Shown here: piece after piece, positions 14,269 through 30,575 of the stretch
How positions within the stretch are numbered: the first letter of the stretch is position 1
Layout: each line of letters begins with the position of its first letter
Source: Archangium sp.
GTDB lineage: Bacteria; Myxococcota; Myxococcia; Myxococcales; Myxococcaceae
Direction: 5' to 3'
Assembly (NCBI GenBank): GCA_031367385.1
Contig: JANLPS010000496.1
Span: 1 to 33,565 of the forward strand
DNA: 33,565 bases
Made by a program: the position numbers and the translations under genes
The notes under the pieces: model-generated
What the model was told of the DNA's origin: nothing
Seen by the model: only the letters and a program-made list of their open reading frames with translations
Databases searched by the model: none

Positions 14269-14535
14269 ATGGCTGACTCCACGACCGACGTCGCTCCGCC
14301 GCCTCCGCTGCCAACCCCGACGTACCCAGCCATCGAGACGCTGATCGAATACGTCACCGCCGATGAGCTCGCGGCGCTCTTCGCGCCGGTCACGACCGCC
14401 CTCGCCGAGCTCAAAGGCCCGCGTGTCGAGCAGGGCCGACGCGCTGCCAAGGCGATCGAGCACACACAGGGGCTGTTGTCGCACCTGTTGCAAGTGCGCG
14501 AAAAGCTTGAGGCGCAACGCAAGGGCGGCCGCTGA
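14269..14535 (+). CDS. small helical protein, candidate YscE/CdsE-like needle co-chaperone
   Basis: 88 aa; divergent from the ABC operon; lies directly before the SctF-like and TPR genes; function inferred from position and size only. Confidence 0.6.
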   Translation: MADSTTDVAPPPPLPTPTYPAIETLIEYVTADELAALFAPVTTALAELKGPRVEQGRRAAKAIEHTQGLLSHLLQVREKLEAQRKGGR

Positions 14536-14577: not shown

Positions 14578-14606
14578 ACGCAACCATCGCGCGGCTCGTT
14601 CGATAA
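14578..14606 (+). promoter_or_regulatory. putative sigma-28-like promoter ACGCAAC-N16-CGATAA
   Basis: Identical boxes and spacing recur at 31534-31562; CGATAA matches the sigma-28 -10 core GCCGATAA. Confidence 0.7.
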
Positions 14607-14648
14607 CCCATCACACCTTACGCAGCTCAAGCAGTTTGGAGGCTCACA

Positions 14649-15209
14649 ATGGCTGGCCCAGTTCACATCGAAGGCGTTTCACCCGCGCGGCTCTCGCTCA
14701 ATGTCACGGTCGGTAACCAGACCCAGAACAAGTCATTCGGCGAGAAGGTCAACATGGGCCTGCAGCAGGGCGCGGCGGCCATCGCCAGCGGCGCAGGCAT
14801 TCTCGGGTCGGCCGGCATCCCCGGTGGGGCGATTGTCTCGGCGGCGGTCTCGTCGGTCAGCTCGCACCTCGGCGGAGCGGGCGGCACCAGCAGCGCAGGC
14901 TACGCGGCGACCGGCGTCGTCAACTTGGGCAACGGCGGCGGTGGAGCGCTCAACACCACCGCAGGCGCGTCGAGCGTCGGCTCGGTCGTCAACGGCACCA
15001 CGGCCGGGAGCGTCAACTACAACTCCGGCTCGACCACCAATGACGTCGGCTTCGGCAACAGCTCGATCTCGAGCATGAGCGGAGACATGACGAGCATGCT
15101 GCAGCTGCAGTTCAAAATGCAGAAAGAGAACTTGATGTACACGGGCATCTCGAACGTGCTCAAGACCAAGCACGAAACCGTGAAGAACTCGGTCTCGAAC
15201 ATTCGTTAA
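14649..15209 (+). CDS. Gly/Ser-rich T3SS substrate with SctF(needle)-like C-terminal helix
   Basis: GGAGG RBS; Cys-free, Gly/Ser-rich; last 37 aa MLQLQFKMQKENLMYTGISNVLKTKHETVKNSVSNIR align ungapped with the recalled PrgI/MxiH C-terminus. Confidence 0.7.
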   Translation: MAGPVHIEGVSPARLSLNVTVGNQTQNKSFGEKVNMGLQQGAAAIASGAGILGSAGIPGGAIVSAAVSSVSSHLGGAGGTSSAGYAATGVVNLGNGGGGALNTTAGASSVGSVVNGTTAGSVNYNSGSTTNDVGFGNSSISSMSGDMTSMLQLQFKMQKENLMYTGISNVLKTKHETVKNSVSNIR

Positions 15210-15250
15210 TCAGCGGTCGCATCACGCTGAACATTCGACGGTGTACCGCG

Positions 15251-15275
15251 AGGGCGACCCACATGAGGTCGCCCT
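15251..15275 (+). terminator. stem-loop downstream of the SctF-like gene (terminator or mRNA stabiliser)
   Basis: AGGGCGACC / GGTCGCCCT 9-bp perfect stem, 7-nt loop, weak U tract. Confidence 0.6.
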
Positions 15276-15344
15276 TCGTGCTTTGAAGCTTCGTGCTACA
15301 ACGGGTCGCCCGAAGTCGCGTTACCGGAGAGGATCGTTCAAAGC

Positions 15345-15980
15345 ATGTCGGACATCGCGGGGAGCCTGGTACCCCTGAGCAAACAGCAGGCAATGTTGAT
15401 GGTCGAGTCGGCCTATCTGTTGATGGAGCTCGGCAAGTTAGACCAGGCCCGCGAGACCGCGTTGGGCTGCGCTTTGCTGATGCCCAAGAGCGAAGTGCCG
15501 CAGCTCGCGCTCGGCAGTGTCGAGTTCGGTGCTCAGAAATACGACAAGGCGCTTCAGGCGTACCGCGCCGCTCAGCGCTTGGCTCCGAAAGCCGCGCTCC
15601 CTCGAGCGCACTGTGGAGAAGCCCTGCAGGCCATGGGCAAGTTCACCGAGGCGATGAAAGAGCTCGTCGCCGCCACCGAGGCCGAGCCCGGTTCAGGTGG
15701 AGCGGCCTTCGCCATCGCCCTGATGATCATCATCGCGAACAAAGAATATGACGCCAACAAGCTCGAGGCGTCGCTCAAGACCTTGGCCACGGTCGTGAAA
15801 ATCGACCCTGACAACGCCTTGGGCCAGGCGCACTATGGCAAGGTGTTGGTGCTGCTCGAGAAGCATGAAGAAGGCGCAGCGGCCTTGAACCGAGCGGTGG
15901 CGCTCGATACCGATGGCGATGGCGGGCGAATCGCGGCGTTTTTTCTCGAGGCGATCAAGGTCGCCAGCAAAAAGAAGTGA
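15345..15980 (+). CDS. TPR chaperone (YscG/CdsG-like by position)
   Basis: Multiple TPR helices ('AYLLMELGKLDQA', 'ALGSVEFGAQKYDKA', 'GEALQAMGKFTEA'); no signal peptide; follows the SctF-like gene. Confidence 0.8.
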   Translation: MSDIAGSLVPLSKQQAMLMVESAYLLMELGKLDQARETALGCALLMPKSEVPQLALGSVEFGAQKYDKALQAYRAAQRLAPKAALPRAHCGEALQAMGKFTEAMKELVAATEAEPGSGGAAFAIALMIIIANKEYDANKLEASLKTLATVVKIDPDNALGQAHYGKVLVLLEKHEEGAAALNRAVALDTDGDGGRIAAFFLEAIKVASKKK

Positions 15981-16000: not shown

Positions 16001-16429
16001 ATGTCCGTTCGTGGAGTTCGCGGTGGAAAAGCAGGGGGCGCGGGCGGTGCGCGCGGGGCCTCCGGCGCGGCAGGCGCGGGCAAGGCCTCGAAGGCAGGAG
16101 CGACGGGCGGGGCAGGCTTCGGCGGCAAGGTCGACAAGGCCGAACGGCTGGTTGGCCCCTCAGGCTCTGTCGCCTCGGGCAACGCCACGGCCATTGCGGC
16201 CTCTGACCCGGTCGTAGGCCAAGTGCTTGAATTAGCTAGGCAACTCAAGACGGGGCAGCTCAAGAGCCGTGAAGAGGCGACCAAGAAATTGGTGGCCGAT
16301 ATTCTTCGCGAAAAGGTGCGCAGCCAGTCGAAACACCTCTCAGACAAGGTGTTTCAGCAGCTCCGCGACGACCCCCAACTCAGCCAGACGCTCGACCGAC
16401 TCTGGAAGCGCGCCGAGAACGAGGAGTAA
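16001..16429 (+). CDS. hypothetical protein, Gly/Ala-rich N-terminus and helical C-terminus
   Basis: Co-oriented ORF filling the gap between the TPR and sigma genes; no recognised domain. Confidence 0.75.
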   Translation: MSVRGVRGGKAGGAGGARGASGAAGAGKASKAGATGGAGFGGKVDKAERLVGPSGSVASGNATAIAASDPVVGQVLELARQLKTGQLKSREEATKKLVADILREKVRSQSKHLSDKVFQQLRDDPQLSQTLDRLWKRAENEE

Positions 16430-16438
16430 GGTCCCCAC

Positions 16439-17221
16439 GTGCCGCTCTCGGAAAGCAAAACCCAAATCCTCGAGAAGTACGGCTCGTACGTGCGGTCGCT
16501 CGCGGCCCAGGTGCGCAAGCAGTTCAACTCCCAGTACGAGATGGACGAGCTCGTCGCATGGGGGCAAATCGGCCTGCTCGAGGCAGCCGAGCGCTTCGAC
16601 GCCAAGGTGGGTGCGAATTTTCTCACCTTTGCCCACTACCGCATCAAGGGTGCGATTTATGACGGGCTGCGCAAGATGGGCGTGCTCAAGGGCAACGCCG
16701 CCGCGGCCGAGCGCAGCAACACGTACTTAGGTAACCTGGCAGCGACCAGCTCGCCGGGTGGGCGCCTTGAAGACGACGTGAACAGCATTTCATCTGCCGT
16801 GACCGGCTTGGCGATGGTCTTCGCCACGAGTTTTGAGGGCACTGAAGGCCTTCAGGTCAGCGATGACGCAATACCAGCCGATGAGCGTCTGCAAATGGAG
16901 CAGCTCAAACGGCGGGTCAGGGCGGCCATTGAGCATCTGCCCGAAAAAGAGCGAAAGCTTCTGCAGGGTTACTACTTTCAGAACAAGACCCTCGAGGAGG
17001 CCGGTGCCGAAATCGGTCAATCGAAGAGCTGGGCCAGCCGACTTCACGCCAGGGCCGTTGAGACCCTGAAGAAACTTCTCGAAGAGCAAGACGATAACTT
17101 CGAAGAGTCAAACCCGAGGAGCGACCATGGCCGGACCACTGGCAGGAATCCCAGCGCAGGAGATCGCCAAGCAGAAGCTGCCCGAGGCCGCCCAACAGAA
17201 GGGCGCCCAAAGCAAGTTTGA
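16439..17221 (+). CDS. fliA: FliA/WhiG-family (sigma-28-like) RNA polymerase sigma factor
   Basis: Region 2 'DELVAWGQIGLLEAAERFD...FLTFAHYRIKGAIYDGLR'; region 4 'LPEKERKLL..YYFQNKTLEEAGAEIGQSKSWASRLHARA'; 3' end overlaps sctI by 95 nt. Confidence 0.9.
   Translation: MPLSESKTQILEKYGSYVRSLAAQVRKQFNSQYEMDELVAWGQIGLLEAAERFDAKVGANFLTFAHYRIKGAIYDGLRKMGVLKGNAAAAERSNTYLGNLAATSSPGGRLEDDVNSISSAVTGLAMVFATSFEGTEGLQVSDDAIPADERLQMEQLKRRVRAAIEHLPEKERKLLQGYYFQNKTLEEAGAEIGQSKSWASRLHARAVETLKKLLEEQDDNFEESNPRSDHGRTTGRNPSAGDRQAEAARGRPTEGRPKQV
17069..17097 (+). promoter_or_regulatory. third, degenerate copy of the promoter motif (AAGAAAC-N16-CGATAA) inside fliA, upstream of sctI
   Basis: Same spacing as the other two copies, 5/7 match in the upstream box, 29 nt before the sctI ATG. 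Confidence 0.45.
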
Positions 17222-17657
17222 TCAGAACCTGAAGTCGCACGACACGGCGGCCGCCAAGGCGACGTCGCAGGTTCAGAGTGCTCAGCAGACCCACGCCGCG
17301 CAGCACGTGTCGGCGGTCGAAAAGGTCAAACAAGCCGAGCAATCAAGCAAGGTTCAGAAGGCCGAGCTGTCGAAGCTCGACCCGAACAAGACGGCGATTC
17401 GAGACCCGGTCACCCAGAAGTCTGAGGTGCAAAAGGGCGGCTCGATGATCGGCGAAATGGTCTCCAGCATGGAGAAGAACCAGCAGAGCATCGACAAGCT
17501 GATCAACGGTGGCTTGTCGGGCAAAGAGTTCACCAATCAAGAAATGCTGTCGCTCCAGGCAGGCATGTACAAGTACTCGCAAGAGCTCGATTTGACGTCG
17601 AAGGTCGTCGAGAAGGCGACCAGCGGGCTCAAAGACACGCTCAAAACGCAGGTCTGA
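17127..17657 (+). CDS. sctI: T3SS inner rod protein (SctI/HrpB2-like)
   Basis: AGGAG RBS; C-terminus 'EMLSLQAGMYKYSQELDLTSKVVEKATSGLKDTLKTQ' fits the SctI pattern; immediately upstream of sctJ. Confidence 0.8.
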   Translation: MAGPLAGIPAQEIAKQKLPEAAQQKGAQSKFDQNLKSHDTAAAKATSQVQSAQQTHAAQHVSAVEKVKQAEQSSKVQKAELSKLDPNKTAIRDPVTQKSEVQKGGSMIGEMVSSMEKNQQSIDKLINGGLSGKEFTNQEMLSLQAGMYKYSQELDLTSKVVEKATSGLKDTLKTQV

Positions 17658-17673: not shown

Positions 17674-18489
17674 ATGCGCACTCCGAGAGTTTTGTGGCTT
17701 GTCGCCGCGCTGGTTTTTTCAGCGTGCGCGGTGCCACTGCAGCACGACCTGAATGAAGAAGACGCGAACGAAATCTACGTGCTCTTGCAGCACTGGGGCA
17801 TCGACGCGAACAAGGTCAAAGAGGGCGAAGGCAAAGAAGCGAAGTACGTGATCACCGTGCCCAAGGCCAACATCGCCTCGGCGGCGCAGCTGCTCAAAGA
17901 CAACTCGCTGCCCCGGCCGATGGCTGGGGGCCTGGCGATCTTCAAGCAGACGAAGGGCATGATCCCCACGCAGACCGAGGAGCGCGCGATGTTCATCGAG
18001 GCGCTCGGCGGCGAGGCGTCGAATGCGCTCAACCGAATACCCGGCGTGCTCGAGGCGCGGGTGATCGTGATGATCCCCGAGGTGACTGACTTGACGCAGC
18101 CTGAGAAGAAGCCGAAACCGTCGGCCTCGGTGCTGATCAAGTACATCGCGGGTGAGGGCAAGCCACCGGTCTCGGCGCTCGACGTGAGCGAGTTCGTGGC
18201 GCGCTCGGTGCCTGAGCTTGAGAAAGAGAACGTGAAGGTGCTGATGATCGAGGCCAAGTCGGCCACGCGCAGCGACGACGAGATGGCGCAGCTGATGACC
18301 GAGCACCTCGGCGTTCGGCTCGAGAAGAACAGCGTGCAGATGTTTCGGGCGCTGATCGCGCTGCCGACCTTGTTGTTCTTGGGCGTGACCGGCGCGCTGG
18401 CGTTCTTCATGATTCGAAAGCCAGCGAAAAACGGCAACGGCGGTGGTGGCAACGGCGGTCGTCGCACCAAAACCTCGCCTGACGCCTGA
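17674..18489 (+). CDS. sctJ: T3SS inner-membrane ring lipoprotein
   Basis: Lipobox FSA-C; 'L.E.DANEI..LL...GI.A.K', 'LP', 'GMIPTQTEERA', 'L..IPGVLEARV', 'PSASVLIKY'; C-terminal TM plus basic tail; short non-FliF form. Confidence 0.95.
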   Translation: MRTPRVLWLVAALVFSACAVPLQHDLNEEDANEIYVLLQHWGIDANKVKEGEGKEAKYVITVPKANIASAAQLLKDNSLPRPMAGGLAIFKQTKGMIPTQTEERAMFIEALGGEASNALNRIPGVLEARVIVMIPEVTDLTQPEKKPKPSASVLIKYIAGEGKPPVSALDVSEFVARSVPELEKENVKVLMIEAKSATRSDDEMAQLMTEHLGVRLEKNSVQMFRALIALPTLLFLGVTGALAFFMIRKPAKNGNGGGGNGGRRTKTSPDA

Positions 18490-18512
18490 CGGTTTCGCAC
18501 CGCAAGGGCCGC

Positions 18513-19913
18513 GTGGAACAGTACTTCACCTCACTCTCCAAGCGGCAGACGATGCTGCTGTTGACGTCGTTGGCGTTCGGCGGCTCGAAGGCCGTGGCGT
18601 CGTTCGAACATCTGCCGGCTGAAGAAGAAGAGCTGCTCAAGCACCGGGCTGCGGCGCTGCTGCAGATACCGCGCGACAAACGAGTGCCCCTGCTGGTGCA
18701 GGAGATCAAGCGGCTCACGACCCAGCGCCGGCGACAATTGGCGTCGGCAGACCCACGGAGGTTGGCCGAGGTGCTCAGCAAAGAGCGCCCGGTGATGATT
18801 GAAGTGGTGCTCAGAGCATTACCGGTCGAGCTGGCTGAAGCGGCGCGAGCGGCAATACCCAATCACCCGACCATTCGGCTGCAGCGCGACGTGCGCCCCG
18901 ACGTGCTCTCGATCATTCGGTGGAAGCTCGAAGAAGCGCTGCAGCAGAACGCGCCGCGGGTCGGCACTTTTCGCTTCACTGACCTGCTGACACTGCAGCA
19001 GCGCGAGATTTTGAGCGTGTGCGATCGCATGGGTGCGCGGGTGCTCTCGACGGCGATCGCAGGCTTGCCGAGCGCTGAGGCCGAGCAGTTGTTTTCGCAG
19101 CTGCCGCCTGATCAACGAACCTTGGCGATGAAGGCGGCTGAAGCGGCGAAGTCGAAGCCCCTGAGCGAAGACGACGCGAAGACGGTTTTGGGCATGCACG
19201 GTGCGCTCGAGAACCCCTCCGAAGGTATGCGGAGCGCCGGTGCGCAGCGGTTGATGCGAGCCTGCGTGGCGCAGTCGGGCGACTTCGCGCAGCGCATGGT
19301 CGAGCGCTACACCGGCGACCTGGGCAAGCTGTTGCGGCGCTGGGCGAAAGAAGAGCGAAAGCGCTCAGTCAAAGGCGACGGTGGGCGGCTCGACATCGTC
19401 GAGCAGCTCGAGCGTCTCGCGCAGAAGGGCATCATCGATCGGCCGATGCGGTTGCCGCCTCCATTTCGCGCGCCGCCAGCCGTGCCACCAACGCTGCGGC
19501 CTCCGCCCGCGGGGCTCGCCAACAGGGGCTCTTCACGTCCCGCGAACAGCCGAGGAGACAACCCGGTCGCCGCGGCGCCCGCCTACCCTGGGCCTCGGCG
19601 TGAGAGCCTGAGCGCGTTGCCACGGCGCGATTCAGTGGCCGAGCGAGAAGCGAACCGCTCGGGCGTGCCGGCACCACGCCCCAGCCGAGGCTCACCCATG
19701 CCTCAAGCCGAAGAGGGCTCGGGGAGCCATCAGCGGATCATGCGAGACGGCAAACCCCTGGTGCGCGAGGCCGAGGCCACGCTGCCGCCTCGGCGAAAAT
19801 CGGTCGGAGCGTCTCCGGCGTTTCAAGCGATACCGCGCCGCAAGACCAACGATGCGGCGAAGTCACCCGTTGTGAAGGGCACTGGGCGCGGCTCGAACGA
19901 CGACTCCGAGTAG
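18513..19913 (+). CDS. FliG-like protein in the SctK position, with Pro/Arg-rich disordered tail
   Basis: 'LAEVLSKERPVMIEVVLRALP' resembles the FliG-M EHPQ segment; 'FRFTDLLTL..REI' resembles the FliG-C MFxFEDL segment; between sctJ and sctL. Confidence 0.7.
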   Translation: MEQYFTSLSKRQTMLLLTSLAFGGSKAVASFEHLPAEEEELLKHRAAALLQIPRDKRVPLLVQEIKRLTTQRRRQLASADPRRLAEVLSKERPVMIEVVLRALPVELAEAARAAIPNHPTIRLQRDVRPDVLSIIRWKLEEALQQNAPRVGTFRFTDLLTLQQREILSVCDRMGARVLSTAIAGLPSAEAEQLFSQLPPDQRTLAMKAAEAAKSKPLSEDDAKTVLGMHGALENPSEGMRSAGAQRLMRACVAQSGDFAQRMVERYTGDLGKLLRRWAKEERKRSVKGDGGRLDIVEQLERLAQKGIIDRPMRLPPPFRAPPAVPPTLRPPPAGLANRGSSRPANSRGDNPVAAAPAYPGPRRESLSALPRRDSVAEREANRSGVPAPRPSRGSPMPQAEEGSGSHQRIMRDGKPLVREAEATLPPRRKSVGASPAFQAIPRRKTNDAAKSPVVKGTGRGSNDDSE

Positions 19914-19988
19914 GCGTTCGTTGAGGTGCTGTACGGCTCCGTGCGTCGAGGCTCAGCCGACCGCCAGGAGAGCCTTCGCTCGCGGAGG

Positions 19989-20277
19989 AAATGCGAAGCG
20001 CAGTCGTCACTTCAGAAATCGGCTCTCGCCTTGCCGGTCGCGCAGATCTGGTCCTGGTCAGCTTCCGAGCGTTATCGCTCAGGCGCTTGCCGGTGGTGAT
20101 CCGAACCCTTCGGGCTTTGCGCCAAGAGACCCTCAGCGCGGCTTAGAAAATGCGAAACGCAGTTGTCATTCTGAAATCACCCCGAGCCCTGACCACCCTT
20201 GCCCTCGTCGCCAAGGAGCTGGTCGGGGTCGGCAGGGCGGTCTGCCACCCGAACCCAGCGCACCCCAGCGCTCGGCG
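19989..20277. repeat. degenerate tandem duplication (two units starting 19989 and 20148)
   Basis: AAATGCGAAGCGCAGTCGTCACTTCAGAAATC vs AAATGCGAAACGCAGTTGTCA-TTCTGAAATC, then colinear shared blocks CCTTGCC, CTGGTC..GGTC.GC, CCGAACCC, CAGCGC. Confidence 0.7.
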
Positions 20278-20378
20278 GCCATGGCGCACACCGTCTTCGG
20301 CCCAATCGACGGGGTCTTGCATCGTCGCGGAGGCAGTCTCCGAGCGCATTCCACCGATTGATGTAGACTCCGCTGACA

Positions 20379-21086
20379 ATGGACGACGGGCCTCGAGACG
20401 ACCGTCGACCTGGAGCGCCGAATGCGCCTCGGGTCATCGGCAAAGTCATCAGAAGTGATGGGCAAGACCTCTCGCTGAGTGGCGAAAAATCGCCCCGGCG
20501 GGCCGGCGTGGTGAACGCCGAAGAGTTCGAAGCGCGAAACAAAGCCAAAGAGATCATCGCCGACGCGCAGCGCAAAGCCGACGAGATCATCGCCGCCGCT
20601 GGGCTCGCCCGCGATGAAGTCTTCACCAAGGCCCGCGAAGAAGCGCACGCCGAGGTGCAGGCGCAATCGACTGAAGAGCTCGCGCGCGCCAAGCTGCAAG
20701 CGGGTCAAATTCTCGCGGCCTCCGAGCATGACGTGGTCGAGTTGGCCCTCAAAATAGCCGCCAAGATCATCGGCCGGGAGCTCGAGCACGACCCTGAGCT
20801 CGTGCTCGAAATCGCCGCCAACGTGATTCAAACCACCCGGGCTGCGAAGGCGCTGATCCTCCGCGTGCATCCCGAAGACGGCAAGCTGCTGCGGAGCACG
20901 AGACCGCGACTCCTCGAGCTTGTCGGGCGCTCGGTCGATCTGGCGATCCGTGACGACAGCGATGTTGAGCGCGGCGGGTGCATCGTTCAGACCGAGTTCG
21001 GCGTGATCGACGGGCAGATCAAGACTCAGTTCCAAATGATCAAGAACGTCTTCATGCCCGACGCGGCGAAGAAAGAGGCCAAGTAG
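20379..21086 (+). CDS. sctL: T3SS stator protein (SctL/FliH family)
   Basis: Helical 'A..IIA.A' repeats, 'VELALKIAAKII', 'LRVHPED', 'D.DVERGGCIVQTEFGVIDG'. Confidence 0.93.
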   Translation: MDDGPRDDRRPGAPNAPRVIGKVIRSDGQDLSLSGEKSPRRAGVVNAEEFEARNKAKEIIADAQRKADEIIAAAGLARDEVFTKAREEAHAEVQAQSTEELARAKLQAGQILAASEHDVVELALKIAAKIIGRELEHDPELVLEIAANVIQTTRAAKALILRVHPEDGKLLRSTRPRLLELVGRSVDLAIRDDSDVERGGCIVQTEFGVIDGQIKTQFQMIKNVFMPDAAKKEAK

Positions 21087-22406
21087 GTGGCGATCGATCT
21101 CAGCCGCTACCACGCGCTCCTCAAGAACGCGTCGACGATGGGCGTTCGCGGCCGGGTGGTCGAGCTGACCGGTCTGGTGATCAAAGCCGCAGTCCCCAAC
21201 GTGCGCATGGGCGAGGTCTGCGAAATACGCACCGGTCGAGGCACGGTGCGCTCCGAGGTCGTCGGGTTTCAAGGCGACACCGTGATGCTGATGCCGCTGG
21301 GCGAATTGGGCGGCATCGGGCCCGACTCCGAGGTGATACCGACCGGGCGGCCGCTGACGATCATGGTCGGCAACGGGCTGCTCGGGCGCGTGCTCAACGG
21401 CCTGGGCGAGCCCATCGACGGCAAGGGCCCGCTCAACGGCGAAGGCATGAGCGAGTGGGCGGTCGACCGCGACTGCCCCGACCCATTCAAGCGCATTCGC
21501 ATCACGCGGCCGCTTGCGCTGGGGGTGCGCTGCATCGATGGTTTGCTCACCGTCGGAGAAGGCCAGCGCATCGGGCTCTTCGCCGGCTCTGGGGTCGGCA
21601 AGTCGACCTTGATGGGCCAGATCGCCCGTAACACCGCAGCCGAGATGTCGGTCATCGCGCTGGTCGGCGAGCGTGGTCGCGAAGTGCTCGAGTTCATCGA
21701 AGATGCCTTGGGTGAAGAGGGCATGAAGCGCTCGGTCGTGGTCTGCGCGACGTCCGACCAACCCTCGCTGGTGCGCTTGCGAGCAGGCTACGTGGCCACC
21801 GCCGTCGCCGAGTTCTTTCGCGAGCGCGGCGGCAATGTGCTGTTCATGCTCGACACCGTCACCCGCCTCGCGCGCGCCCAGCGTGAAATCGGCCTGGCCA
21901 TCGGCGAGCCTCCCGCCCGCCAAGGCTACCCGCCCTCGGTCTTCTCGATGCTGCCGCGCATGCTCGAGCGCACCGGCAATTCAGACAAAGGCCGCTGCAC
22001 CGCCATCTACACCTGCCTCGTCGCCGGTGAAGACATGGAGGAGCCCATCGCCGACGAAGTGCGCGGTATTCTCGACGGTCACTTCATTCTGAACCGTGCG
22101 CTGGGTGAGCGAAACCAGTGGCCCGCGATGGACGTGCTGGCCTCGCTCTCTCGCGTGATGAGCCAGATCGCGACGCCGGAGCACAAGAAGGCCGCGGGTA
22201 AGCTGCGCGAGACGCTCTCGAACTACGAGAAGCAGCGCGACCTGATTCTGCTCGGTGCGTACCAGTACGGCACCGACCCTCGCGTCGACTACGCCATCGA
22301 CAAGTACGACCAGATCATCGGCTACCTGAAGCAAGACACCTCCGAAAACACACCCTTCGATCAGGCGGTACAGATGCTGGTCGAGCTCTTCGCTGACGCG
22401 GTCTGA
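21087..22406 (+). CDS. sctN: T3SS ATPase (SctN/FliI)
   Basis: 'GQRIGLFAGSGVGKS', 'ALVGERGREV', 'LDTVTRLARAQREIGL..GEPP..GYPPSVF', 'EPIADEVRGILDGH'. Confidence 0.98.
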   Translation: MAIDLSRYHALLKNASTMGVRGRVVELTGLVIKAAVPNVRMGEVCEIRTGRGTVRSEVVGFQGDTVMLMPLGELGGIGPDSEVIPTGRPLTIMVGNGLLGRVLNGLGEPIDGKGPLNGEGMSEWAVDRDCPDPFKRIRITRPLALGVRCIDGLLTVGEGQRIGLFAGSGVGKSTLMGQIARNTAAEMSVIALVGERGREVLEFIEDALGEEGMKRSVVVCATSDQPSLVRLRAGYVATAVAEFFRERGGNVLFMLDTVTRLARAQREIGLAIGEPPARQGYPPSVFSMLPRMLERTGNSDKGRCTAIYTCLVAGEDMEEPIADEVRGILDGHFILNRALGERNQWPAMDVLASLSRVMSQIATPEHKKAAGKLRETLSNYEKQRDLILLGAYQYGTDPRVDYAIDKYDQIIGYLKQDTSENTPFDQAVQMLVELFADAV

Positions 22407-22529
22407 CCACCGTCAACCAGGCCTGCTTGCGGCGCTTTTGCCCGCTGTCGCACATCGACGCACGTACGCTCACGCTTGGTGACTCTTGGCGACCTGGGCA
22501 GCTGCTTCGGGTAGACTTCGCCGCGTTCT

Positions 22530-23036
22530 ATGCCCCCGTATCGCCTTCAAGCGCTCCTCGACATTCGCATCAAGGCCGAAGACGAGGCCAAAGAGGCGTT
22601 TTCGCACGCGGTTCGGGCCCATGACGCCGAGAAAAAGAAGCACGAAGCGATGACCGCCGACCTGCAAAAACGCAAGGTCGAGCGCAAGGCCAAGGTCGCG
22701 CAGTTCTTGACCGAGATGACCGCCAAGGGCGGCGGCATCAGCGCTTTTCAGCAGATGAACCGCTTCGAGCAACGGCTCAAAGACGAAGAGGCTCAGCTGG
22801 CGATGGAGATCGAGCGCCAGAAAGAAGCCGTCGACGAGGCGCTCAAGCTGGTCGAGCAACGGCGGCAAGAAATGGCCGAGGCGGCGACCGAGAAAAAAGC
22901 GATCGAGAAGCACCGTGAGAATTGGGCGCTCGAGGTTCGAAAAGAGCGCATGCAAAAAGAAGAAATGAACCAGGAGGAGATCGGCAACACGCTCCACCTG
23001 GCCCGCGTGCGCGCCGCCACGAGGAAGCCGTCATGA
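22530..23036 (+). CDS. sctO: T3SS stalk protein (SctO/FliJ-like coiled coil)
   Basis: 'YRLQALLDIR' N-terminus, coiled coil, 'EKKAIEKHRENW...EE..QEE' end; directly after the ATPase. Confidence 0.85.
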   Translation: MPPYRLQALLDIRIKAEDEAKEAFSHAVRAHDAEKKKHEAMTADLQKRKVERKAKVAQFLTEMTAKGGGISAFQQMNRFEQRLKDEEAQLAMEIERQKEAVDEALKLVEQRRQEMAEAATEKKAIEKHRENWALEVRKERMQKEEMNQEEIGNTLHLARVRAATRKPS

Positions 23037-24040
23037 GCCGCGTCGACGACGACCGAGATGCCGCGCGGGCCGAGCAGCGGCTGCAAGAGGCCAAGCGCAC
23101 CGAGCAGGCCAAGCAGGCCCAGCGAAAGACCGCCGACGTCGGGTTCTCGAAGCTGGTCGGCAAGTCGCAAACCGAGCAGCTCAAGCGGGTCACCCAGACC
23201 GTCAAACAAGACAGCACCGCGAAGAGTGCCATCGCGCAGCTGCTCCACGAGGCCGAGTCGGCGCACGTCGAGCAGGCCGACACCGCGCGAATGCTCGAGG
23301 GCCAGCACCAGGCCGAGGCGGGGCTGGTCGCGAAAGACGCGCAGTCGAAGACCACCGGCGAGGCCCACAAGAACGCCGCCCAAACCCAGGGTCAGGCGAC
23401 CAGGGCCAAAGAGACCGTCGTGCGCGATGGCTCGCTCGCCGCGCAGGGCCGCGCGGTCGACATGGGCCAGACCGGCGTGACCGCCGAAGGGCGAAAATCA
23501 GACGCCAAGGTACAGCGCGAGATGCTGGCCGAGCGCGGCGCGTCGTCAGATTCGAACCAAGAAGGTGCCAGCAAGTCGGCCGCCAGCGCGCGCGGCGAGA
23601 AGGGCGGCCTCAAGACCGACGCCGACAAGGGCGGGGGCGGGCAGCAGGGCGGCAACAAAGACGGCAAAGACGGGCCGCCGCCGACGATGCGGTTCAACCC
23701 GGCGCTGATGGCTCCGGTGGCGGTGGCCAAGCCGAAAGAGGCCACCGGCTCTGACCGGCTGCGAAAAATCGCCAACGAGCTCGCCCAGAAGATCGTCGAG
23801 CGGGTTCGCATCGGCACCAACTCAGCGGGCCGGGTCGAGTTTCAAATCGACCTCCGAAGCGACGTGCTCTCGGGCTTGCAGGTCAAGGTCTCGAGCCAGA
23901 ACGGCAAGATCAAAGCGACCTTCACCGGCTCGAACAAAGACGTGCTCAAGCTGATTGAAGAGCAGGGTGAGGCGCTCAAGGCGGCCCTGGCCTCTCGCGG
24001 GTTGACCCTCGAAGACTTCAAGGTCGAGAGGCGCCCGTGA
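23033..24040 (+). CDS. sctP: T3SS ruler / hook-length control protein (SctP/FliK)
   Basis: ATGA overlap at 23033; long low-complexity region then T3S4/FliK_C-like domain 'EFQIDLRSDVLSGLQVKVSSQNGKIKATF...LKAALASRGL'. Confidence 0.85.
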   Translation: MSRVDDDRDAARAEQRLQEAKRTEQAKQAQRKTADVGFSKLVGKSQTEQLKRVTQTVKQDSTAKSAIAQLLHEAESAHVEQADTARMLEGQHQAEAGLVAKDAQSKTTGEAHKNAAQTQGQATRAKETVVRDGSLAAQGRAVDMGQTGVTAEGRKSDAKVQREMLAERGASSDSNQEGASKSAASARGEKGGLKTDADKGGGGQQGGNKDGKDGPPPTMRFNPALMAPVAVAKPKEATGSDRLRKIANELAQKIVERVRIGTNSAGRVEFQIDLRSDVLSGLQVKVSSQNGKIKATFTGSNKDVLKLIEEQGEALKAALASRGLTLEDFKVERRP

Positions 24041-25464
24041 TGGACGAAGGCGACGACTCGAGCAGCGGCGGCAGCGACCGCACGATGATGATCGACGTCA
24101 AGAAGATCAAAGCACCGCCGCGCCGCAACAGCGTGCCGCAGCAGCGCGAAGTCGAGGCTCCGCCCCGGCGCGAGTGGCAACCCTTCGCGTTCTCACGGCT
24201 CGAGAAGATCTCGAAGTCATACGTGCAGCTGCTGCGAGGGCTGGAGTGGATGCTCCCCAACGTGCGCAGCAACGGCGAAGTGGCCGAGTCGGTGCGCGAT
24301 CGCCTGCAGGAGATGATCGACGAGAAGGTCACACTCGCCACCGAATCAGTGCACGTGGTCAACCCGGCCAAGGCCCGCCGCTTCGTCAGCGACCCGACGT
24401 TCTTGGCGGTGTTGGCGCCCTTGCCGAACAAGACCCGCGGCCTGCTCGAGGTCGAGCTCGGCCTGGCGCACATGGTCATCGACATGTTGCTGGGTGGTGC
24501 GGGCGAGGCGGTCGCGTTGCGGCCGCTGACCGACATCGAAGAAGGCGTGCTCACCTACGTGTTGATTGAGACCCTCAAGGTGCTGGCCCCGACCATCGAC
24601 CCGGCGCTGCCCAAGCTGCGGCTCGAGAGTGTCTGCCGAACCTTCGACGAGGCAGTCAGCATTCTGGGTGAAGATGAGCACCTGGCGGTGGTGCAGCTGA
24701 AGGCGATGATCGGCGAGCACTCCGGCTACGTGCGCATTTTCATACCCGAGAGCGTGCTGAGCATGGCGCACCCTTCGACCGATGCCGCGGTGCGACGGGC
24801 CCGCCGCTCGGCTGACGCGCAGGCGCATGCGGGGCGGTTGAGCACGGTGAAGGTGTGGCTGCGCGCTGAGATTGGCCAGGTCGAGATTTCGGCTGCCGAC
24901 CTGCGGCAGGTGCGCGAGGGTGACGTGATTCTGGTCGACGGGCTCAAGACCCGGCCCGACTTGGGAGAGCCCGGCACCGCGGTGTTGAGGTTGGGCGCAG
25001 GCCGTCAAGGCTCGCTGACCGCCGAGGTCACCGTCGAAGACAAGCGCTACAGCGCGAAGATCATCGAGATCGCCGTGGGAGCCCCTGACGTGCCGCGCGA
25101 GCCGCCCGAAGACGCCGCGCCACCCCCAGTGGTCGAAGACGAAGCGCGGGTCGAGCAGGAGCTGTTGGGCGACGCCCCCGATGACTCGACCAACCCGGGC
25201 AAATTACCAAGGAGCAACGACGTGGAGAATCCTGAAGGGGCCGACCTGCTCAACGACATTCCGCTCCAGATCGCGGTGGAGCTGGGGCGGGTCGCGATGA
25301 CGGCCGAAGAGGTGGTCGGGCTGAAGGTCGGTCATGTCATCGACTTGAACCGCTCGGCCGGTGAACCGTTGGATCTGTCGGTCAATGGCAAGGTCGTCGC
25401 GCGCGGCGAGCTGGTCGAGGTCGACGGCAACCTGGGTGTGCGCATCTTGTCGCTCGCGGGGTGA
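24037..25464 (+). CDS. sctQ: T3SS cytoplasmic ring protein SctQ (FliM-like domain plus two SpoA/FliN domains)
   Basis: 'IDMLLGGAG...RPLTDIE' FliM-like motif; 'LNDIPLQIAVELGR...NGKVVARGELVEVDGNLGVRI' SpoA domain. Confidence 0.93.
   Translation: MMDEGDDSSSGGSDRTMMIDVKKIKAPPRRNSVPQQREVEAPPRREWQPFAFSRLEKISKSYVQLLRGLEWMLPNVRSNGEVAESVRDRLQEMIDEKVTLATESVHVVNPAKARRFVSDPTFLAVLAPLPNKTRGLLEVELGLAHMVIDMLLGGAGEAVALRPLTDIEEGVLTYVLIETLKVLAPTIDPALPKLRLESVCRTFDEAVSILGEDEHLAVVQLKAMIGEHSGYVRIFIPESVLSMAHPSTDAAVRRARRSADAQAHAGRLSTVKVWLRAEIGQVEISAADLRQVREGDVILVDGLKTRPDLGEPGTAVLRLGAGRQGSLTAEVTVEDKRYSAKIIEIAVGAPDVPREPPEDAAPPPVVEDEARVEQELLGDAPDDSTNPGKLPRSNDVENPEGADLLNDIPLQIAVELGRVAMTAEEVVGLKVGHVIDLNRSAGEPLDLSVNGKVVARGELVEVDGNLGVRILSLAG
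25209..25224 (+). promoter_or_regulatory. internal RBS and GTG start giving an 80-aa SctQ C-terminal product (25222-25464)
   Basis: AAGGAG at 25209-25214, in-frame GTG at 25222 just before the last SpoA domain. Confidence 0.7.
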
Positions 25465-26090
25465 TGATGACGATGGCTCGGCTGCTGGGGGTGGTGCTCG
25501 CACTGGGTGCGCTGTCGACGCGCGCCAATGACTCCGTGGACCAGGCGCCTCACGCGCGAGATGGCGGCCCGATGCTCGCAGACATGATCGCCAGCATGGA
25601 GGAGAACCAGCGCAACATTGACACGCTGCTCGGCCGAGACGCGGGTGGGAGCGACATTGCCGCCATCGTGGCCCAGCAGCTGCCCCCCGCGGCGCCCTCG
25701 CTCGACTTGCCGGTCAGCGACTTCGACCCGAAGGGCGAAGACCTGAACCTCGGGTGGACGCTGGTTCGCACCGCGCTGGTGCTGGGCATCGTGGTGTCGC
25801 TGATCTACCTGACCCTCAACGTCGGCTTGCGCAAGCTGCTCGGCATCAAACCGGCGACGAGCCACGGGCTGGTGACGGTGCTCGAGCGCGTCACGCTCGA
25901 TCAGAAGCGGGCGCTGTTCGTGGTGCGGGCGGGCAGCGAGGTGCTGCTGCTCGGAGGCTCCGACTCGAACCTGGAGCTCATCACCAAGCTCGACCCCGCG
26001 GAGGTGGAGCGGCTGCAGAGCCAACCTGCGGCGCCGCTGACGATGAGCCCGCTGCTGCAAAAATTGCTCGGAGCGAGGAAAAAATCGTGA
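25461..26090 (+). CDS. fliO: FliO-family export-gate assembly protein
   Basis: Signal-like N-terminus, single TM 'LVRTALVLGIVVSLIYLTL', cytoplasmic 'VTVLERVTLDQKRALFVVRAGSEVLLLGGS'; upstream of sctR; exact start uncertain (25461-25473). Confidence 0.85.
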   Translation: MMMTMARLLGVVLALGALSTRANDSVDQAPHARDGGPMLADMIASMEENQRNIDTLLGRDAGGSDIAAIVAQQLPPAAPSLDLPVSDFDPKGEDLNLGWTLVRTALVLGIVVSLIYLTLNVGLRKLLGIKPATSHGLVTVLERVTLDQKRALFVVRAGSEVLLLGGSDSNLELITKLDPAEVERLQSQPAAPLTMSPLLQKLLGARKKS

Positions 26091-26935
26091 CTCGATTCGA
26101 TCGCGCACGGTGGCGCCTGTTTTCATTGGGCATCTTCTTGATGCCGCTGGTGGCCGCCGCGTTGCCGAAAAAAGAAGCGGCGCCGATGACCGATACGCCG
26201 CTGACCGGCGGCGAGACCTTCGCCAACCGCCCGTTGGTGTTGATGATCGCGCTCACCGCGTTGGGTCTGGCGCCGTTCGTGCTGTTGATGGTGACGAGCT
26301 TCGTGAAGATCTCGGTGGTCTTGTCAATCGTGCGCTCGGCGATGGGCACGCAGCAGATTCCTCCGACGCAGGTGATCACGGGCTTGGCGATCATCTTGAC
26401 GGTCTACATCATGGCGCCGGTGGGTCAGGAGATGTTCAGGGTCGCCGACGGTAACGGCGTCACGATGAGCGGCGATTTCATGCAGGCCAAGACCGTCGAC
26501 ATCTTGATCAAGTCAGCCAAGAAGGCCCGTGGGCCGCTGCGTGACTTCTTGAAAAAGAAGGTCACCGCCAAAGATCGCACCCTGTTTTATTCGCTGGCAC
26601 TCAAGCTGCGAAAGAACAAGACCGATGGGTGCCCGGATGAGCACAAGTTGCTCGGTGAAGAGACCCGCGATGACGCCAACTGCATCGCCGACACTGATTT
26701 TCTGGTGCTGACACCGGCCTTCGTGATCTCCGAGCTCAAAGAGGCTTTTCAGATCGGCTTCTTGCTCTTCGTGCCTTTTCTGGTCATCGACATGGTGGTC
26801 GCGAACATCTTGCTCGCGCTGGGCATGCAGATGCTCTCGCCGACGACCATTTCAATGCCCTTCAAGCTGCTGCTCTTCGTGTTGGTCGACGGCTGGTACC
26901 TGATCGCGAAGGGGTTGGTCATTGGGTACATCTGA
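26087..26935 (+). CDS. sctR: T3SS export apparatus protein SctR (FliP family)
   Basis: 'MVTSFVKI.VVL..R.A.GTQQIPP', 'PAFVISELKEAFQIGF', 'SPTTISMPFKLLLFVLVDGW'; GTG 26087 overlaps fliO stop. Confidence 0.96.
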   Translation: MTRFDRARWRLFSLGIFLMPLVAAALPKKEAAPMTDTPLTGGETFANRPLVLMIALTALGLAPFVLLMVTSFVKISVVLSIVRSAMGTQQIPPTQVITGLAIILTVYIMAPVGQEMFRVADGNGVTMSGDFMQAKTVDILIKSAKKARGPLRDFLKKKVTAKDRTLFYSLALKLRKNKTDGCPDEHKLLGEETRDDANCIADTDFLVLTPAFVISELKEAFQIGFLLFVPFLVIDMVVANILLALGMQMLSPTTISMPFKLLLFVLVDGWYLIAKGLVIGYI

Positions 26936-26947
26936 AAGAGGTCACGT

Positions 26948-27214
26948 ATGCATGAGATGACAGCCATCGTTCAGCAGGCCCTGCTGCTGGTGCTGATTTC
27001 GTCGGGGCCGCCGATCGTGCTCAGCCTGATGGTGGGCTTCGCGGTCTCGGTCTTTCAAGCGACCACGCAGATTCAGGAGCAGACCTTGTCATTCGCTCCG
27101 AAAATCGTGGTGGTCTTCGGCGTCTTGGGGCTCGCCGGCCCGTGGATTGGCACGAACCTGTTGCGCTTCACCTTTCACATCTTCGACCGGTTTCCCCTGA
27201 TCATCGGGCACTGA
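26948..27214 (+). CDS. sctS: T3SS export apparatus protein SctS (FliQ family)
   Basis: 'FQATTQIQEQTLSFAPK' motif, 88 aa. Confidence 0.96.
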   Translation: MHEMTAIVQQALLLVLISSGPPIVLSLMVGFAVSVFQATTQIQEQTLSFAPKIVVVFGVLGLAGPWIGTNLLRFTFHIFDRFPLIIGH

Positions 27215-27224
27215 TCACCCTTCG

Positions 27225-28055
27225 ATGAACTACCAGGCCGTCATCGACCAGATGCGTGAACAGCTCGGCTTGCAAGCCGACTTTACGCAGCTGTTGTTGG
27301 CGTACGCCCTGCTGATGGGGCGAATCTTGCCGGTGATTCTGCTGACGCCGTTCTTGGGCGGTGAAGCGGTGCCCAGCGAAGTCAAGCTGGGGCTCGGCGT
27401 GATGATCGGCATGGTGCTCTACCCGGCGATCATCTCGGTGTCGGCGAACATCCCGATCTCTCCGGTGCTGTTGATTGCCTTGATGCTCAAGGAGCTCTTC
27501 ATCGGTCTGTCGATGGCGTTCGTGGTGAACATCGTGTTCGAAGCGGCGAACGTCGGCGGCAGCTTGATCGATACGATGTCGGGCATCACCCAGGCACAGC
27601 TGATGGTGCCCCAGCTCCAGCAGAACGTTTCGCTCTTCGCCAACTTGAAGATTCAATTGGTGACGGTGATCTTCGTCACGCTCAGCGGGCACCACGTGGT
27701 GATCGGCGCCTTCGGTGAGAGCCTGGAGATGGTGGCGCTCGACCAGTACCCGCGTTTCTCACACGGGTTCTGGCCCTTCTTCGAGCTCATCTTGCGCGTC
27801 TTCGGAGACCTGACCCGCATCGCCCTCGCGCTCGCTTCTCCGGTCTTGCTCGCGACCTTCTTGACCGACCTCGCCCTGGGCATGATCAACCGCGTCGCTC
27901 CTCAGGTGCAGGTGTTTTTCGTGGCGATGCAGATCAAACCCGCGGTCACTGGCATCGTGATGATCTCGGCGCTCCACCTGATTCTGGCGCGGGTGCTGAT
28001 CGAATACGGCGTGATGTTCAAGTGGTTGCACCAGTTGCTCGCGCTGCTTCGGTAA
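27225..28055 (+). CDS. sctT: T3SS export apparatus protein SctT (FliR family)
   Basis: 'KELFIGL', 'G.LIDTMSG', 'LALGMINRVAPQVQVF...IK'; highly hydrophobic. Confidence 0.95.
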   Translation: MNYQAVIDQMREQLGLQADFTQLLLAYALLMGRILPVILLTPFLGGEAVPSEVKLGLGVMIGMVLYPAIISVSANIPISPVLLIALMLKELFIGLSMAFVVNIVFEAANVGGSLIDTMSGITQAQLMVPQLQQNVSLFANLKIQLVTVIFVTLSGHHVVIGAFGESLEMVALDQYPRFSHGFWPFFELILRVFGDLTRIALALASPVLLATFLTDLALGMINRVAPQVQVFFVAMQIKPAVTGIVMISALHLILARVLIEYGVMFKWLHQLLALLR

Positions 28056-28068
28056 AGGAGGGCTTTTC

Positions 28069-29136
28069 GTGTCAGACGACAAAACAGAAGAGCCCTCACA
28101 AAAGAAGATCGACGATGCCCGGCGCGAAGGCAACGTGTGGAAGAGCCGAGACCTCTCGGGCGCGATCTCGTTCGCGGTGGCAATGGGCGTCGTGAAAGGC
28201 ACGTGGTCGAGCTTCGAGACCCACATCAAGACGCTGTTCTACTTCGCGATCGAGCACATCTCGCACCCGGCGAACCTGGCGACCGCGGTGCAGCAGATGA
28301 TCATGCTCGCGACCATCAGCCTGATCACCATCTGCCTGCCGATCGCGCTGGCCTCGGGCATCACCGGCGCGCTGGTCGATTTTCTTCAGGTCGGCGCGCT
28401 GTTCACCGCCAAAGCGGTGATGCCGAAGCTCGACAAGCTCAACTTCATCAACGGCCTGAAGAACCTGGTGGGCAAGAAGCAGATCGTCGAGCTGGTCAAG
28501 TCGATCTTCAAGCTGAGCGTCACCGCCAACGTGGTCTACGGCGTGGTGCGCGACGCGATGGGCATGGTGGTGGCGACCACCCGCGGCGACTCGGCGATGA
28601 CGATGTTGGTGATGGGTGAGCTGGTCTACCGAATCGTCATTCGGGTCACGCTGCTCTTCTTGCTCTTCGCGGTCTTCGACGTCTGGTGGCAGCGCCGCTC
28701 GTACATGAAGGATCAGATGATGTCGAAGAGCGACGTCAAGAAGGAGTACAAAGAGTCGGAAGGCGACCCGCATCACAAGGCCAAGCGCAAAGAGCTGCAC
28801 CACGAGATTCTCGAGGGCGCTCAGATGCAGGCGGTGAAGAAGGCCGACGTGGTGGTGACCAACCCCGATCACGTCGCCGTGGCCCTGCAGTACGACAAAG
28901 CGAATGATGGCGCCCCTCGGGTGATCGCCAAGGGCATGAACCTGCGGGCTGAGGCGCTCAAGGCGCTCGCCAAAGAGGCCGACGTGCCGATGATGCGCAA
29001 CGTGCCGCTGGCCCACGCCCTCCTGCGAATCGAGGTCGGCCAGGAGGTGCCCGAGGAGCTCTATGACGCGGTCGCCGAAGTGCTCAATTTCGTTTACCAA
29101 TTGAAGAACGCGCAGACCTCCGCCGCTCGCGTCTGA
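28069..29136 (+). CDS. sctU: T3SS export switch protein SctU (FlhB family)
   Basis: 'KTEEPSQKK..ARREG.V.KS', 'VKKEYKESEGDP', cleavage motif NPDH at 28861-28872; AAAGGAGG RBS. Confidence 0.97.
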   Translation: MSDDKTEEPSQKKIDDARREGNVWKSRDLSGAISFAVAMGVVKGTWSSFETHIKTLFYFAIEHISHPANLATAVQQMIMLATISLITICLPIALASGITGALVDFLQVGALFTAKAVMPKLDKLNFINGLKNLVGKKQIVELVKSIFKLSVTANVVYGVVRDAMGMVVATTRGDSAMTMLVMGELVYRIVIRVTLLFLLFAVFDVWWQRRSYMKDQMMSKSDVKKEYKESEGDPHHKAKRKELHHEILEGAQMQAVKKADVVVTNPDHVAVALQYDKANDGAPRVIAKGMNLRAEALKALAKEADVPMMRNVPLAHALLRIEVGQEVPEELYDAVAEVLNFVYQLKNAQTSAARV

Positions 29137-29223
29137 TCACTCTCGATTTCTCACCAAACGAGAGTTCAGAAAGATGAGCGCCTGGAGTGGTTGAGCGGCA
29201 AAAATCTTTGCTACGTTTTCCCG

Positions 29224-30270
29224 ATGGCTCTCACGACCAAGCCCGCCGACGCTGCTGCACGACCCGCGACCACCGCCACGCCCACTGCGCCTCCCGCATC
29301 GATTGTCGATGATGCGGCGGCCGCTGCCGCGGTGGTGGTGGCCCCGACGGTGCCCGCCGCTGCCCCCGCGTGGACTGCGCCTGCGACTCCCGCTGCGGCC
29401 GACGCCGTGGCCTCGATGACGGCGAGCCTCTCGGCGGCAGCGAAGCGTGCTTGGGGGCCGGCGTCAGTCGCGGCCTCGGCGGTCAATTTGAACCGCGATG
29501 AATTCGCGAAGGCCTCAGTGCCGATGCAGAAGGCGAGGCTGGGCGAGCTCAAGGTCGAGAAGGCCGCGCTCGGCACCAAGATTCAAGATCGGGCCGCAGC
29601 GCTCGATGCGCGGTGGCAACGAAGCTCTGTGTCGACCAAGACCGAGGCGCTGCGCCAATACCACGAGCGCTCGAAGCTGCTCGACCCGGTCGCGCGCAAA
29701 GAGCTCAGCGGGCTGGTCAAAAAATCAGACGAAGCGCAGGGCAAGATCGACAAGCTGCGCGAGAATTCAGACCTGTTGTGCAAGCCGCAGAGCCAGAGCT
29801 GCACGCCCGAAGAGACCAAGGCCGCCAACGAGCTGGCCGGCAAATTGGCCGATGCGCGTGACGCCCAAGCCGTGGTGGTCGAGCGCGCCACGGTGGCCAT
29901 TGACCAGAAGGGCCTGAAGATCGATCGCTTGGCGGTCACCGAAGACGTGATTGACCCCGGCGGTGAGGCGCGGGGAGGCATCGGTCAGAGCCTGCTCGAG
30001 CTGGTCGAGGAGTACACCGACGTCTCTTCGATGATCGACTGGATCGTCACCAAGTTCGCCGACAACATGAAGGAGCAGCGCGAAGAGTTCGACAAGGGCC
30101 GCGAGCTCGATCGCAAGAGCGACGACGAAGAACGCGCCCGCTACAAAGCCGATGACAAGCGCAGCGCACTGAGGGCCGGCGAGCGCCGCAAAGAGGTCGT
30201 CAAAGAGCTGAGCAAAGCAATGGAGCGCGCCGCCGAAATCAAGCTCGAGCAGTGGGGCACCAGGGCCTGA
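29224..30270 (+). CDS. hypothetical coiled-coil protein with Ala/Pro/Thr-rich N-terminus (candidate T3SS substrate)
   Basis: Long ORF with GC-rich third positions; ATG 29224 preferred over TTG 29191; no Sec signal or known domain recognised. Confidence 0.7.
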   Translation: MALTTKPADAAARPATTATPTAPPASIVDDAAAAAAVVVAPTVPAAAPAWTAPATPAAADAVASMTASLSAAAKRAWGPASVAASAVNLNRDEFAKASVPMQKARLGELKVEKAALGTKIQDRAAALDARWQRSSVSTKTEALRQYHERSKLLDPVARKELSGLVKKSDEAQGKIDKLRENSDLLCKPQSQSCTPEETKAANELAGKLADARDAQAVVVERATVAIDQKGLKIDRLAVTEDVIDPGGEARGGIGQSLLELVEEYTDVSSMIDWIVTKFADNMKEQREEFDKGRELDRKSDDEERARYKADDKRSALRAGERRKEVVKELSKAMERAAEIKLEQWGTRA

Positions 30271-30302: not shown

Positions 30303-30575
30303 GTGCCTGAAGACCCAGACATCGCGGTCGCGCTCCAATACGACAAAGACAAAGACAACGCCCCGCGGGTGATCGCCAAGGGCATGCGTCTGAAAGCCGA
30401 GAAAATTCGCGAGATTGCGAAAGAGGCCGGCGTGCCGGTGATGCGCAACGTCACCTTGGCGGGAGCGCTCTACCGGGTCGACATCGGTCAAGAGGTGCCC
30501 GAAGAGCTGTATGACGCGGTCGCTGAAGTGCTCAACTTCGTGTTCGCGCTGCAGCAACAGACTGAAAAAAAGTAG
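30303..30575 (+). CDS. stand-alone SctU/FlhB C-terminal (CC) domain protein, FlhX-like
   Basis: 55/73 aa identical (hand count) to the post-cleavage fragment of the upstream SctU. Confidence 0.92.
   Translation: MPEDPDIAVALQYDKDKDNAPRVIAKGMRLKAEKIREIAKEAGVPVMRNVTLAGALYRVDIGQEVPEELYDAVAEVLNFVFALQQQTEKK

Follow-up and report, generated by a model that had tools for sequence, protein, structure and literature searches.

An extended SctF-like protein as a candidate needle-family subunit of the myxobacterial type III secretion system

Positions 14649-15209 (+ strand) of the window, by which we mean the whole 33,565-nt stretch of Archangium sp. DNA analysed here, encode a 186-aa protein, P0001, that is probably the SctF of myxobacteria, a needle-family member in which the polymerising helix at the C-terminus would have been retained and an N-terminal module added. 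We put the probability of this reading at roughly 0.6. Homology of the C-terminus itself to SctF is very likely. In the available portions of the published work, the Myxo systems have no SctF, which is read as a loss (PMC3459982), and neither a needle homolog nor a T3SS* filament is described (PMC12075869, PMC10433427, PMC12428579). Judged by its sequence, P0001 is an SctF homolog, which contradicts this published loss; whereas SctF is absent from the T3SS* as published, the present survey shows one SctF homolog that is near-universal and another that is common. Our literature search, which left bioRxiv supplements and Thiery et al. 2022 outside its scope, found no proposed needle homolog; an earlier mention of the Myxococcus xanthus counterpart, MXAN_2434, is possible.

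The case for homology comes from profile comparisons. Against a profile of 15 SctF proteins built without myxobacterial sequences, P0001 scored 91.8% in hhalign over 42 ungapped columns that reach both C-termini (the E-value of 7e-7 is a pairwise one), and 92.1% when the wider P0001 family was used. Against 11 SctI proteins, the same program gave 0.2%, and similarity to the inner rod thus failed this test. The SctF profile placed P0001 first among the 112,219 ORFs of the genome (E 0.11; runner-up 2.3). The Pfam model PF09392 also ranked it first in the genome, by a small margin (E 0.665; next 0.77). With the SctF score anchored at the C-terminus, P0001 reached 33.0 and the runner-up 8.9 among 75,438 ORFs; AscF and a Burkholderia SctF, both included as SctF controls, were negative in this anchored test, probably because its offsets misfit proteins that end one residue short. 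In the reverse direction, a profile of the P0001 C-terminus run on a panel of 48 proteins gave 8.7-11.5 bits for three SctF proteins and at most 2 bits for the other seven; SctI, EspA, HrpA, and 17 flagellar proteins stayed at or below 4.5 bits. By score, the nearest SctF proteins in the panel were EscF, Bradyrhizobium SctF, and Burkholderia SctF. The inner-rod proteins MxiI and PrgJ exceeded P0001 on the SctF profile (18-19 bits vs 14.6), in a different part of that profile.

The standard family models respond weakly. T3SS_needle_F was the commonest Pfam match in three overlapping alignments of the P0001 family (23/79, 16/39, and 10/46 members; best E 0.001), below the cut-off. P0001 itself scored 12.7 bits at full length and 15.4 over its last 50 aa, short of the PF09392 cut-off of 29.4, and an NCBIfam scan that included TIGR02105 returned no match. 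The SctF-like C-terminus that, in the original prediction, standard HMMs could miss is well supported, with agreement between profile comparison, rank within the genome, synteny, and co-occurrence; of the HMM check that it proposed against needle families, similarity to the SctF profile was recovered, but the Pfam and NCBIfam cut-offs were not reached. Chain 7y6c_F, a 43-aa component of a needle-chaperone complex, topped two PDB searches with P0001 (E 0.2 and 0.16), below cut-off, and was absent from the list when the wider alignment was used; phmmer of the single protein against the PDB yielded compositional matches only. In the ESM Atlas, PF09392 is assigned to 11% of the members of a 196-aa Myxococcota cluster (score 0.89), which serves as a lead only. 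A PF09392 search for SctF references in 400 genomes of another class gave two weak matches, neither of which was used.

In the tail, the last 37 codons (15096-15206) read as originally described, and comparing these 37 residues with PrgI from an annotated record gave nine identities, at the same letters as originally stated. This count is rare but not unique in the genome: among the 75,438 six-frame ORFs that are 60 aa or longer, five reach it, P0001 included. The SctF-homologous C-terminal helix covers residues 137-186 (15057-15206, + strand), with a mean column identity of 0.80 over residues 151-186 in the family alignment. A variable-length Gly/Ser linker (residues 73-136; 14865-15056, + strand) separates it from a conserved N-terminal module (residues 11-72; 14679-14864, + strand), which consists of an extended segment, a helix, a PG turn, and a second helix, and forms a moderately hydrophobic Gly/Ala helical hairpin with a mean column identity of 0.66-0.68. 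The region before the tail had been described as Gly/Ser-rich and Cys-free, and residues 1-149 are indeed 37% Gly+Ser with zero Cys; it is not low-complexity throughout, given the conservation of residues 11-72. Family members range from ~134 to 200 aa, with linkers of varying length. A monomer model of low confidence (mean pLDDT 52.6, pTM 0.20) places helices at residues 30-54 and 60-73, both weakly, and at 132-185, its best part (pLDDT ~70-80), modelled as one long helix with no hairpin; over most of the linker pLDDT is below 50. Foldseek with this model returned 0 matches, and every row of an Atlas structure search fell below the bar. By codon bias, the gene was not distinguishable from its neighbours.

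P0001 differs clearly from canonical SctF proteins (PrgI, MxiH, YscF, EscF; PF09392). Its C-terminal 42-54 residues appear homologous to them, in register to the last residue, and its gene likewise lies upstream of sctI-sctJ. However, canonical members are ~70-90 aa long and have a proline turn, whereas P0001 has 186 aa, ~135 extra N-terminal residues with the conserved hairpin and Gly linker, and a sigma-28-like promoter; the proline before the C-terminal helix is absent across its family. Since it fails on size, turn, and cut-off, P0001 is not a plain SctF member. Other axial proteins score lower. The original prediction had allowed for a Hrp-pilin-like subunit, an option that a score of 0.2 bits against one HrpA does not support; in profile comparison HrpA reached at most 3.5 bits, and it would share with P0001 the logic of a type III-exported filament. 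The HrpA_pilin model matched 2/46 family members (best E 0.07) and HrpF 10/46 (best E 0.013). EspA is of similar length, but its profile score was at most 2.6 bits and its hhalign value 0.1% (one EspA tested), and three alignment scans of the P0001 family gave no EspA match in Pfam. As for flagellar axial proteins, 17 flagellar proteins from two organisms scored at most 2.5 bits with the P0001 C-terminal profile, FliC fell outside the top 22 of the 48 panel proteins, and the FlgB model matched 3/39 family members (best E 0.011).

The gene lies at the head of a T3SS locus, in the order 88-aa ORF, P0001, TPR protein, 142-aa ORF, FliA-like gene, SctI-like gene, SctJ through SctU, and LcrH-like TPR genes. 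The 88-aa conserved protein (14269-14535, + strand) occupies the usual sctE slot and adjoins P0001 in 58 loci, the window included. The TPR protein (15345-15980, + strand) is a chaperone candidate whose best match is SycD/LcrH (E 6.9e-11, below cut-off). In Yersinia and Aeromonas, the sctE and sctG slots correspond to these two flanking genes; by hhalign against 4-sequence templates, the 88-aa protein gave 0.3% with SctE and the TPR protein 2% with SctG. Three genes downstream of P0001 lies a FliA/WhiG-like sigma factor (16439-17221, + strand; TIGR02479 E 6.5e-30, below cut-off). Directly before it, a conserved 142-aa gene (16001-16429) with a Gly-rich start, a helical end, and no family match possibly encodes an anti-sigma factor. 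An SctI-like inner rod gene (17127-17657, + strand; NF038054 E 0.028), distinct from P0001, precedes the core recognised by Pfam (17674-29136, + strand): SctJ, FliG-like, SctL, N, O, P, Q, FliO-like, R, S, T, and U. SctV lies on a separate contig, C45.

The set of SctI, J, L, N, Q, R-V, and LcrH-like genes without a secretin is that of the Myxococcota T3SS* long locus, and the order is the same in the complete genome G515. The content and order also match those given for the M. xanthus T3SS* (mxan_2434-2464) and the Myxo NF-T3SS, with several LcrH-like genes and, in the text available, no secretin (PMC3459982). Flagellar features are kept, in the form of a weak FliG_C match (18513-19913) and a clear FliO match (25461-26090); in the portion of PMC3459982 available, FliG is listed as lacking in Myxo systems. 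Further along the window are a 359-aa coiled-coil-like ORF (29191-30270) between sctU and a short sctU-like gene, unmatched in the G515 locus, and the short gene itself, a second SctU/FlhB-like ORF (30303-30575) that is 69% identical to SctU over 85 aa and conserved in relatives. A 296-aa Gly-rich ORF (31619-32509, + strand) between two LcrH-like TPR genes is a candidate secreted substrate. It was also considered as a second needle-like gene and rejected (profile comparison 0.4%, anchored score -21.3); no homolog was found in five genomes.

Gene counting connects P0001 to M. xanthus. According to the available text of two papers, sctN is mxan_2442 (PMC12075869) and sctQ is MXAN_2445 (PMC10196010). 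Counted from P0001, sctN comes after eight genes and sctQ after another three, both in the window and in G515, so that the counterpart of P0001 would be MXAN_2434, with which the described cluster begins. As this count predicts, 17/19 bases of the forward primer used for the 2438-2451 deletion agree with the FliA-like gene in the window. We infer the assignment from gene order, not from M. xanthus sequence.

The family is widespread among Myxococcota. A protein search found 409 relatives of P0001, and a search of representatives 2,791 proteins at E <=0.001. The C-terminal profile matches 337/401 Myxococcota genomes, one of which (G586) is unpublished. SctJ was present in all 38 genomes chosen from the 337 that match (three weakly) and in none of 20 listed among the 64 that do not, an agreement of 58/58 that is descriptive only, because kin genomes are not independent. 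When 80 loci were fetched, 59 had the long-locus order, in three a paralog lay directly before sctI-sctJ, and 18 were without a T3SS gene nearby; placement upstream of sctI-sctJ in a T3SS locus thus held for 62/80. The paralog belongs to the second, short myxobacterial T3SS, where it adjoins sctI-sctJ in the usual sctF slot; prgI, mxiH, and others likewise stand directly before sctI-sctJ. In the present genome, a single T3SS and a single family member were found, and profile searches found no other SctF-like gene.

Similar tails also occur elsewhere. Several long myxobacterial proteins (L191, L192, L193, L200, L202, L220) carry an SctF-like end helix on unrelated N-termini, which suggests that needle tails define a family of subunits or cargo. 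Proteins from Chlorobaculum, Geothrix, Sphingomicrobium, and a WWE3 bin (L072:9692-10297, L078:9500-10108, L080:3513-4064, L047:486-1703) share a 36-50 residue end helix at ~66-72% identity; they have signal-peptide-like starts, judged by eye, and no T3SS gene nearby. In unrelated bacteria there are, in addition, mosaic proteins that contain short, almost exact fragments of the P0001 family, in many cases fused to the C-terminal piece of myxobacterial SctI (loci L059, L068, L073, L075 (Flavobacterium), L077, L066, L071, L057, L065, L064, L079, and L061; proteins P0103-P0106 and P0118-P0121). They have no T3SS gene nearby, and codon usage was host-like in 6/6 checked; possibly, they are decoys that jam the predator's machine.

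The three expression signals that the original prediction ascribed to the gene were all located. The RBS, GGAGG, lies at 14638-14642 (+ strand), 6 nt upstream of the ATG, and GGAG precedes the ATG in 54/58 loci. Upstream, at 14580-14606 (+ strand), is a putative promoter, GCAAC-N16-CGATAA, which we take to resemble the sigma-28 consensus and which is conserved in nearly all long loci, with CGATA in 54/58 and CGAGAA in the remaining four. At N16 spacing, the two elements occur 13 times genome-wide, vs 0-5 times for 24 other spacings. The motif recurs upstream of the sctI-like gene (17071), the 296-aa ORF (31536), and each copy of a 72-aa family described below; none of the short loci examined showed it, and no sigma-70 site was found upstream of P0001. 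Its likely reader is the FliA/WhiG-like sigma factor of the locus. In relaxed form the motif is present at 24 sites of the genome (contigs C13, C50, C92, C95, C115, C156, C183, C286, C538, C555, and others), and many of the ORFs that follow are unannotated proteins with unstructured-looking starts, candidate T3SS* substrates. The 3' hairpin (15250-15277, + strand; z -2.56) is conserved as a structure, with z < -2 in 47/57 homologous loci vs 4/57 control stretches (mononucleotide shuffles); it was not recognised as an intrinsic terminator and may act as a stabiliser or attenuator.

The second SctF-like family has the canonical size (72-74 aa) and the proline turn. It aligns with SctF at full length (70 columns, hhalign 84.5%), matches 7y6c_F at E 1.3e-5 and, weakly and at full length, MxiH, and falls in Atlas clusters with 13-32% PF09392. 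With the P0001 tail it scores 95.9% in profile comparison, and its profile matches P0001 at E 7e-6; at the level of profiles, this family is a bridge from P0001 to canonical SctF. In Archangium gephyra, seven identical 72-aa ORFs, each with the promoter motif, lie at L100:6330-16167 (next to L040), and G515 has two copies (L194:19255-19476 and L195:1670-1891). Sigma-28-like control and tandem gene copies are reminiscent of flagellin. One query found the family in 76/151 genomes that have the P0001 family. In the present genome, an assembly of 562 contigs in which loss at a break is possible, the gene was not found, and the 72-aa profile retrieves P0001 alone. Among 30 further genomes, 25 had a match to this profile, and all 25 loci encode long proteins, 22 of the P0001 family and three others with SctF tails. 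From these genome counts, the extended form is near-universal and the 72-aa form patchy; where present, the latter is a better candidate than P0001 for the major subunit.

In the mechanism that we propose, P0001 would be transcribed by the sigma-28-like factor of the locus, held by the neighbouring TPR protein, exported via SctRSTUV in an SctN-dependent manner, and added on top of the SctI rod, with its C-terminal helix as the stacking element, to form a needle-like conduit, so that a filament would be built from P0001. Since canonical needles have their N-terminus facing outward, the linker and the hydrophobic hairpin would coat the outside. There, they may engage the predator's own outer membrane, replacing the missing secretin, or the prey envelope, and the 72-aa family would, where present, extend or co-build the filament. 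We tentatively extend this to the whole system, a step about which we have more doubt than confidence: the predation T3SS would not be needle-less, but would make a secretin-independent filament from SctF-tailed subunits under a flagellar-type sigma factor, with the universal extended P0001, whose outward hydrophobic hairpin would let the conduit cross or grip membranes without a secretin or a separate translocon, plus an amplified 72-aa subunit in many genera.

It is also conceivable, if rather unlikely, that P0001 is an SctF-derived minor subunit, namely a tip, cap, or pore-forming adaptor that would dock on the conduit by its needle helix and insert its hairpin into a membrane, replacing the missing tip or translocon; the bulk filament would then be supplied by the 72-aa family, by another protein with an SctF tail, or by the Kil pilus. 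The main support for this comes from the low SctE and SctG scores of the flanking genes, from the N-terminal hairpin module, whose hydrophobic Gly/Ala character is conserved in both paralog groups, and from the TPR neighbour, which best matches a translocator chaperone family. The hydropathy of P0001 is borderline (Kyte-Doolittle 19-mer maximum 1.55; 1.6 is reached by 46/79 homologs), and its N-terminal part gave weak, non-significant PDB matches to membrane-inserting helices (E 0.078 and 0.66), while the translocators EspB and EspD scored 1.2 and 5.2 bits against its profile. The 72-aa family, with its canonical size, proline turn, 70-column SctF alignment, and seven copies with their own motifs, would suit the role of bulk subunit, but it was not found in this genome, the 25 loci inspected in further genomes all encode long proteins, and the short locus has no second SctF-like candidate besides the P0001 paralog.

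A structure confined to the periplasm, in which P0001 and SctI form a short stub that feeds the Kil (Tad) secretin or pilus with no surface needle, appears improbable. It would fit the lack of a secretin both in a Pfam scan of the window and, in the text available, in the published myxobacterial locus (PMC3459982, PMC12428579). The accessible parts of two papers also report that T3SS* recruitment is Kil-dependent (PMC12075869) and that Abby and Rocha (2012) considered a secretin-free periplasmic needle-like structure possible (PMC3459982). The FliK/SctP-like ruler gene that Pfam finds in the locus is compatible with either length. However, a promoter motif of its own, together with the strong RBS and the 3' hairpin, would suggest that the gene has an output above that of the downstream genes, and in some genera a second SctF-like gene, present in as many as seven copies, suggests a long structure. 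Very improbable, finally, is convergence, in which P0001 would be a secreted effector or regulator and the likeness of its amphipathic C-terminal helix to SctF a coincidence: direct scores are sub-threshold, short helices match easily, and similar tails occur outside T3SS loci, but the register is fixed to the C-terminus, P0001 ranks first genome-wide in four tests, and its family holds the sctF slot of the short locus and is present in both ancient paralogous loci.

If P0001 is indeed the myxobacterial SctF, the standard account of injectisome evolution, in which SctF was lost in myxobacteria, would be changed by two SctF-homologous families in the locus, and the earliest-branching non-flagellar T3SS would have retained a needle-family subunit without a secretin. 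Were the wider proposal of a secretin-independent filament true, the system would represent a living intermediate that links flagellum and injectisome and is directed at bacterial prey. The delivery of lytic cargo by T3SS* is a question left open in papers of 2023-2025, for which there is now one named gene to test; its presumed counterpart MXAN_2434 is not covered by the 2438-2451 deletion that serves as the T3SS* mutant. Predatory myxobacteria burst their prey with this machine, and P0001 offers a concrete gene for how the prey may be reached.
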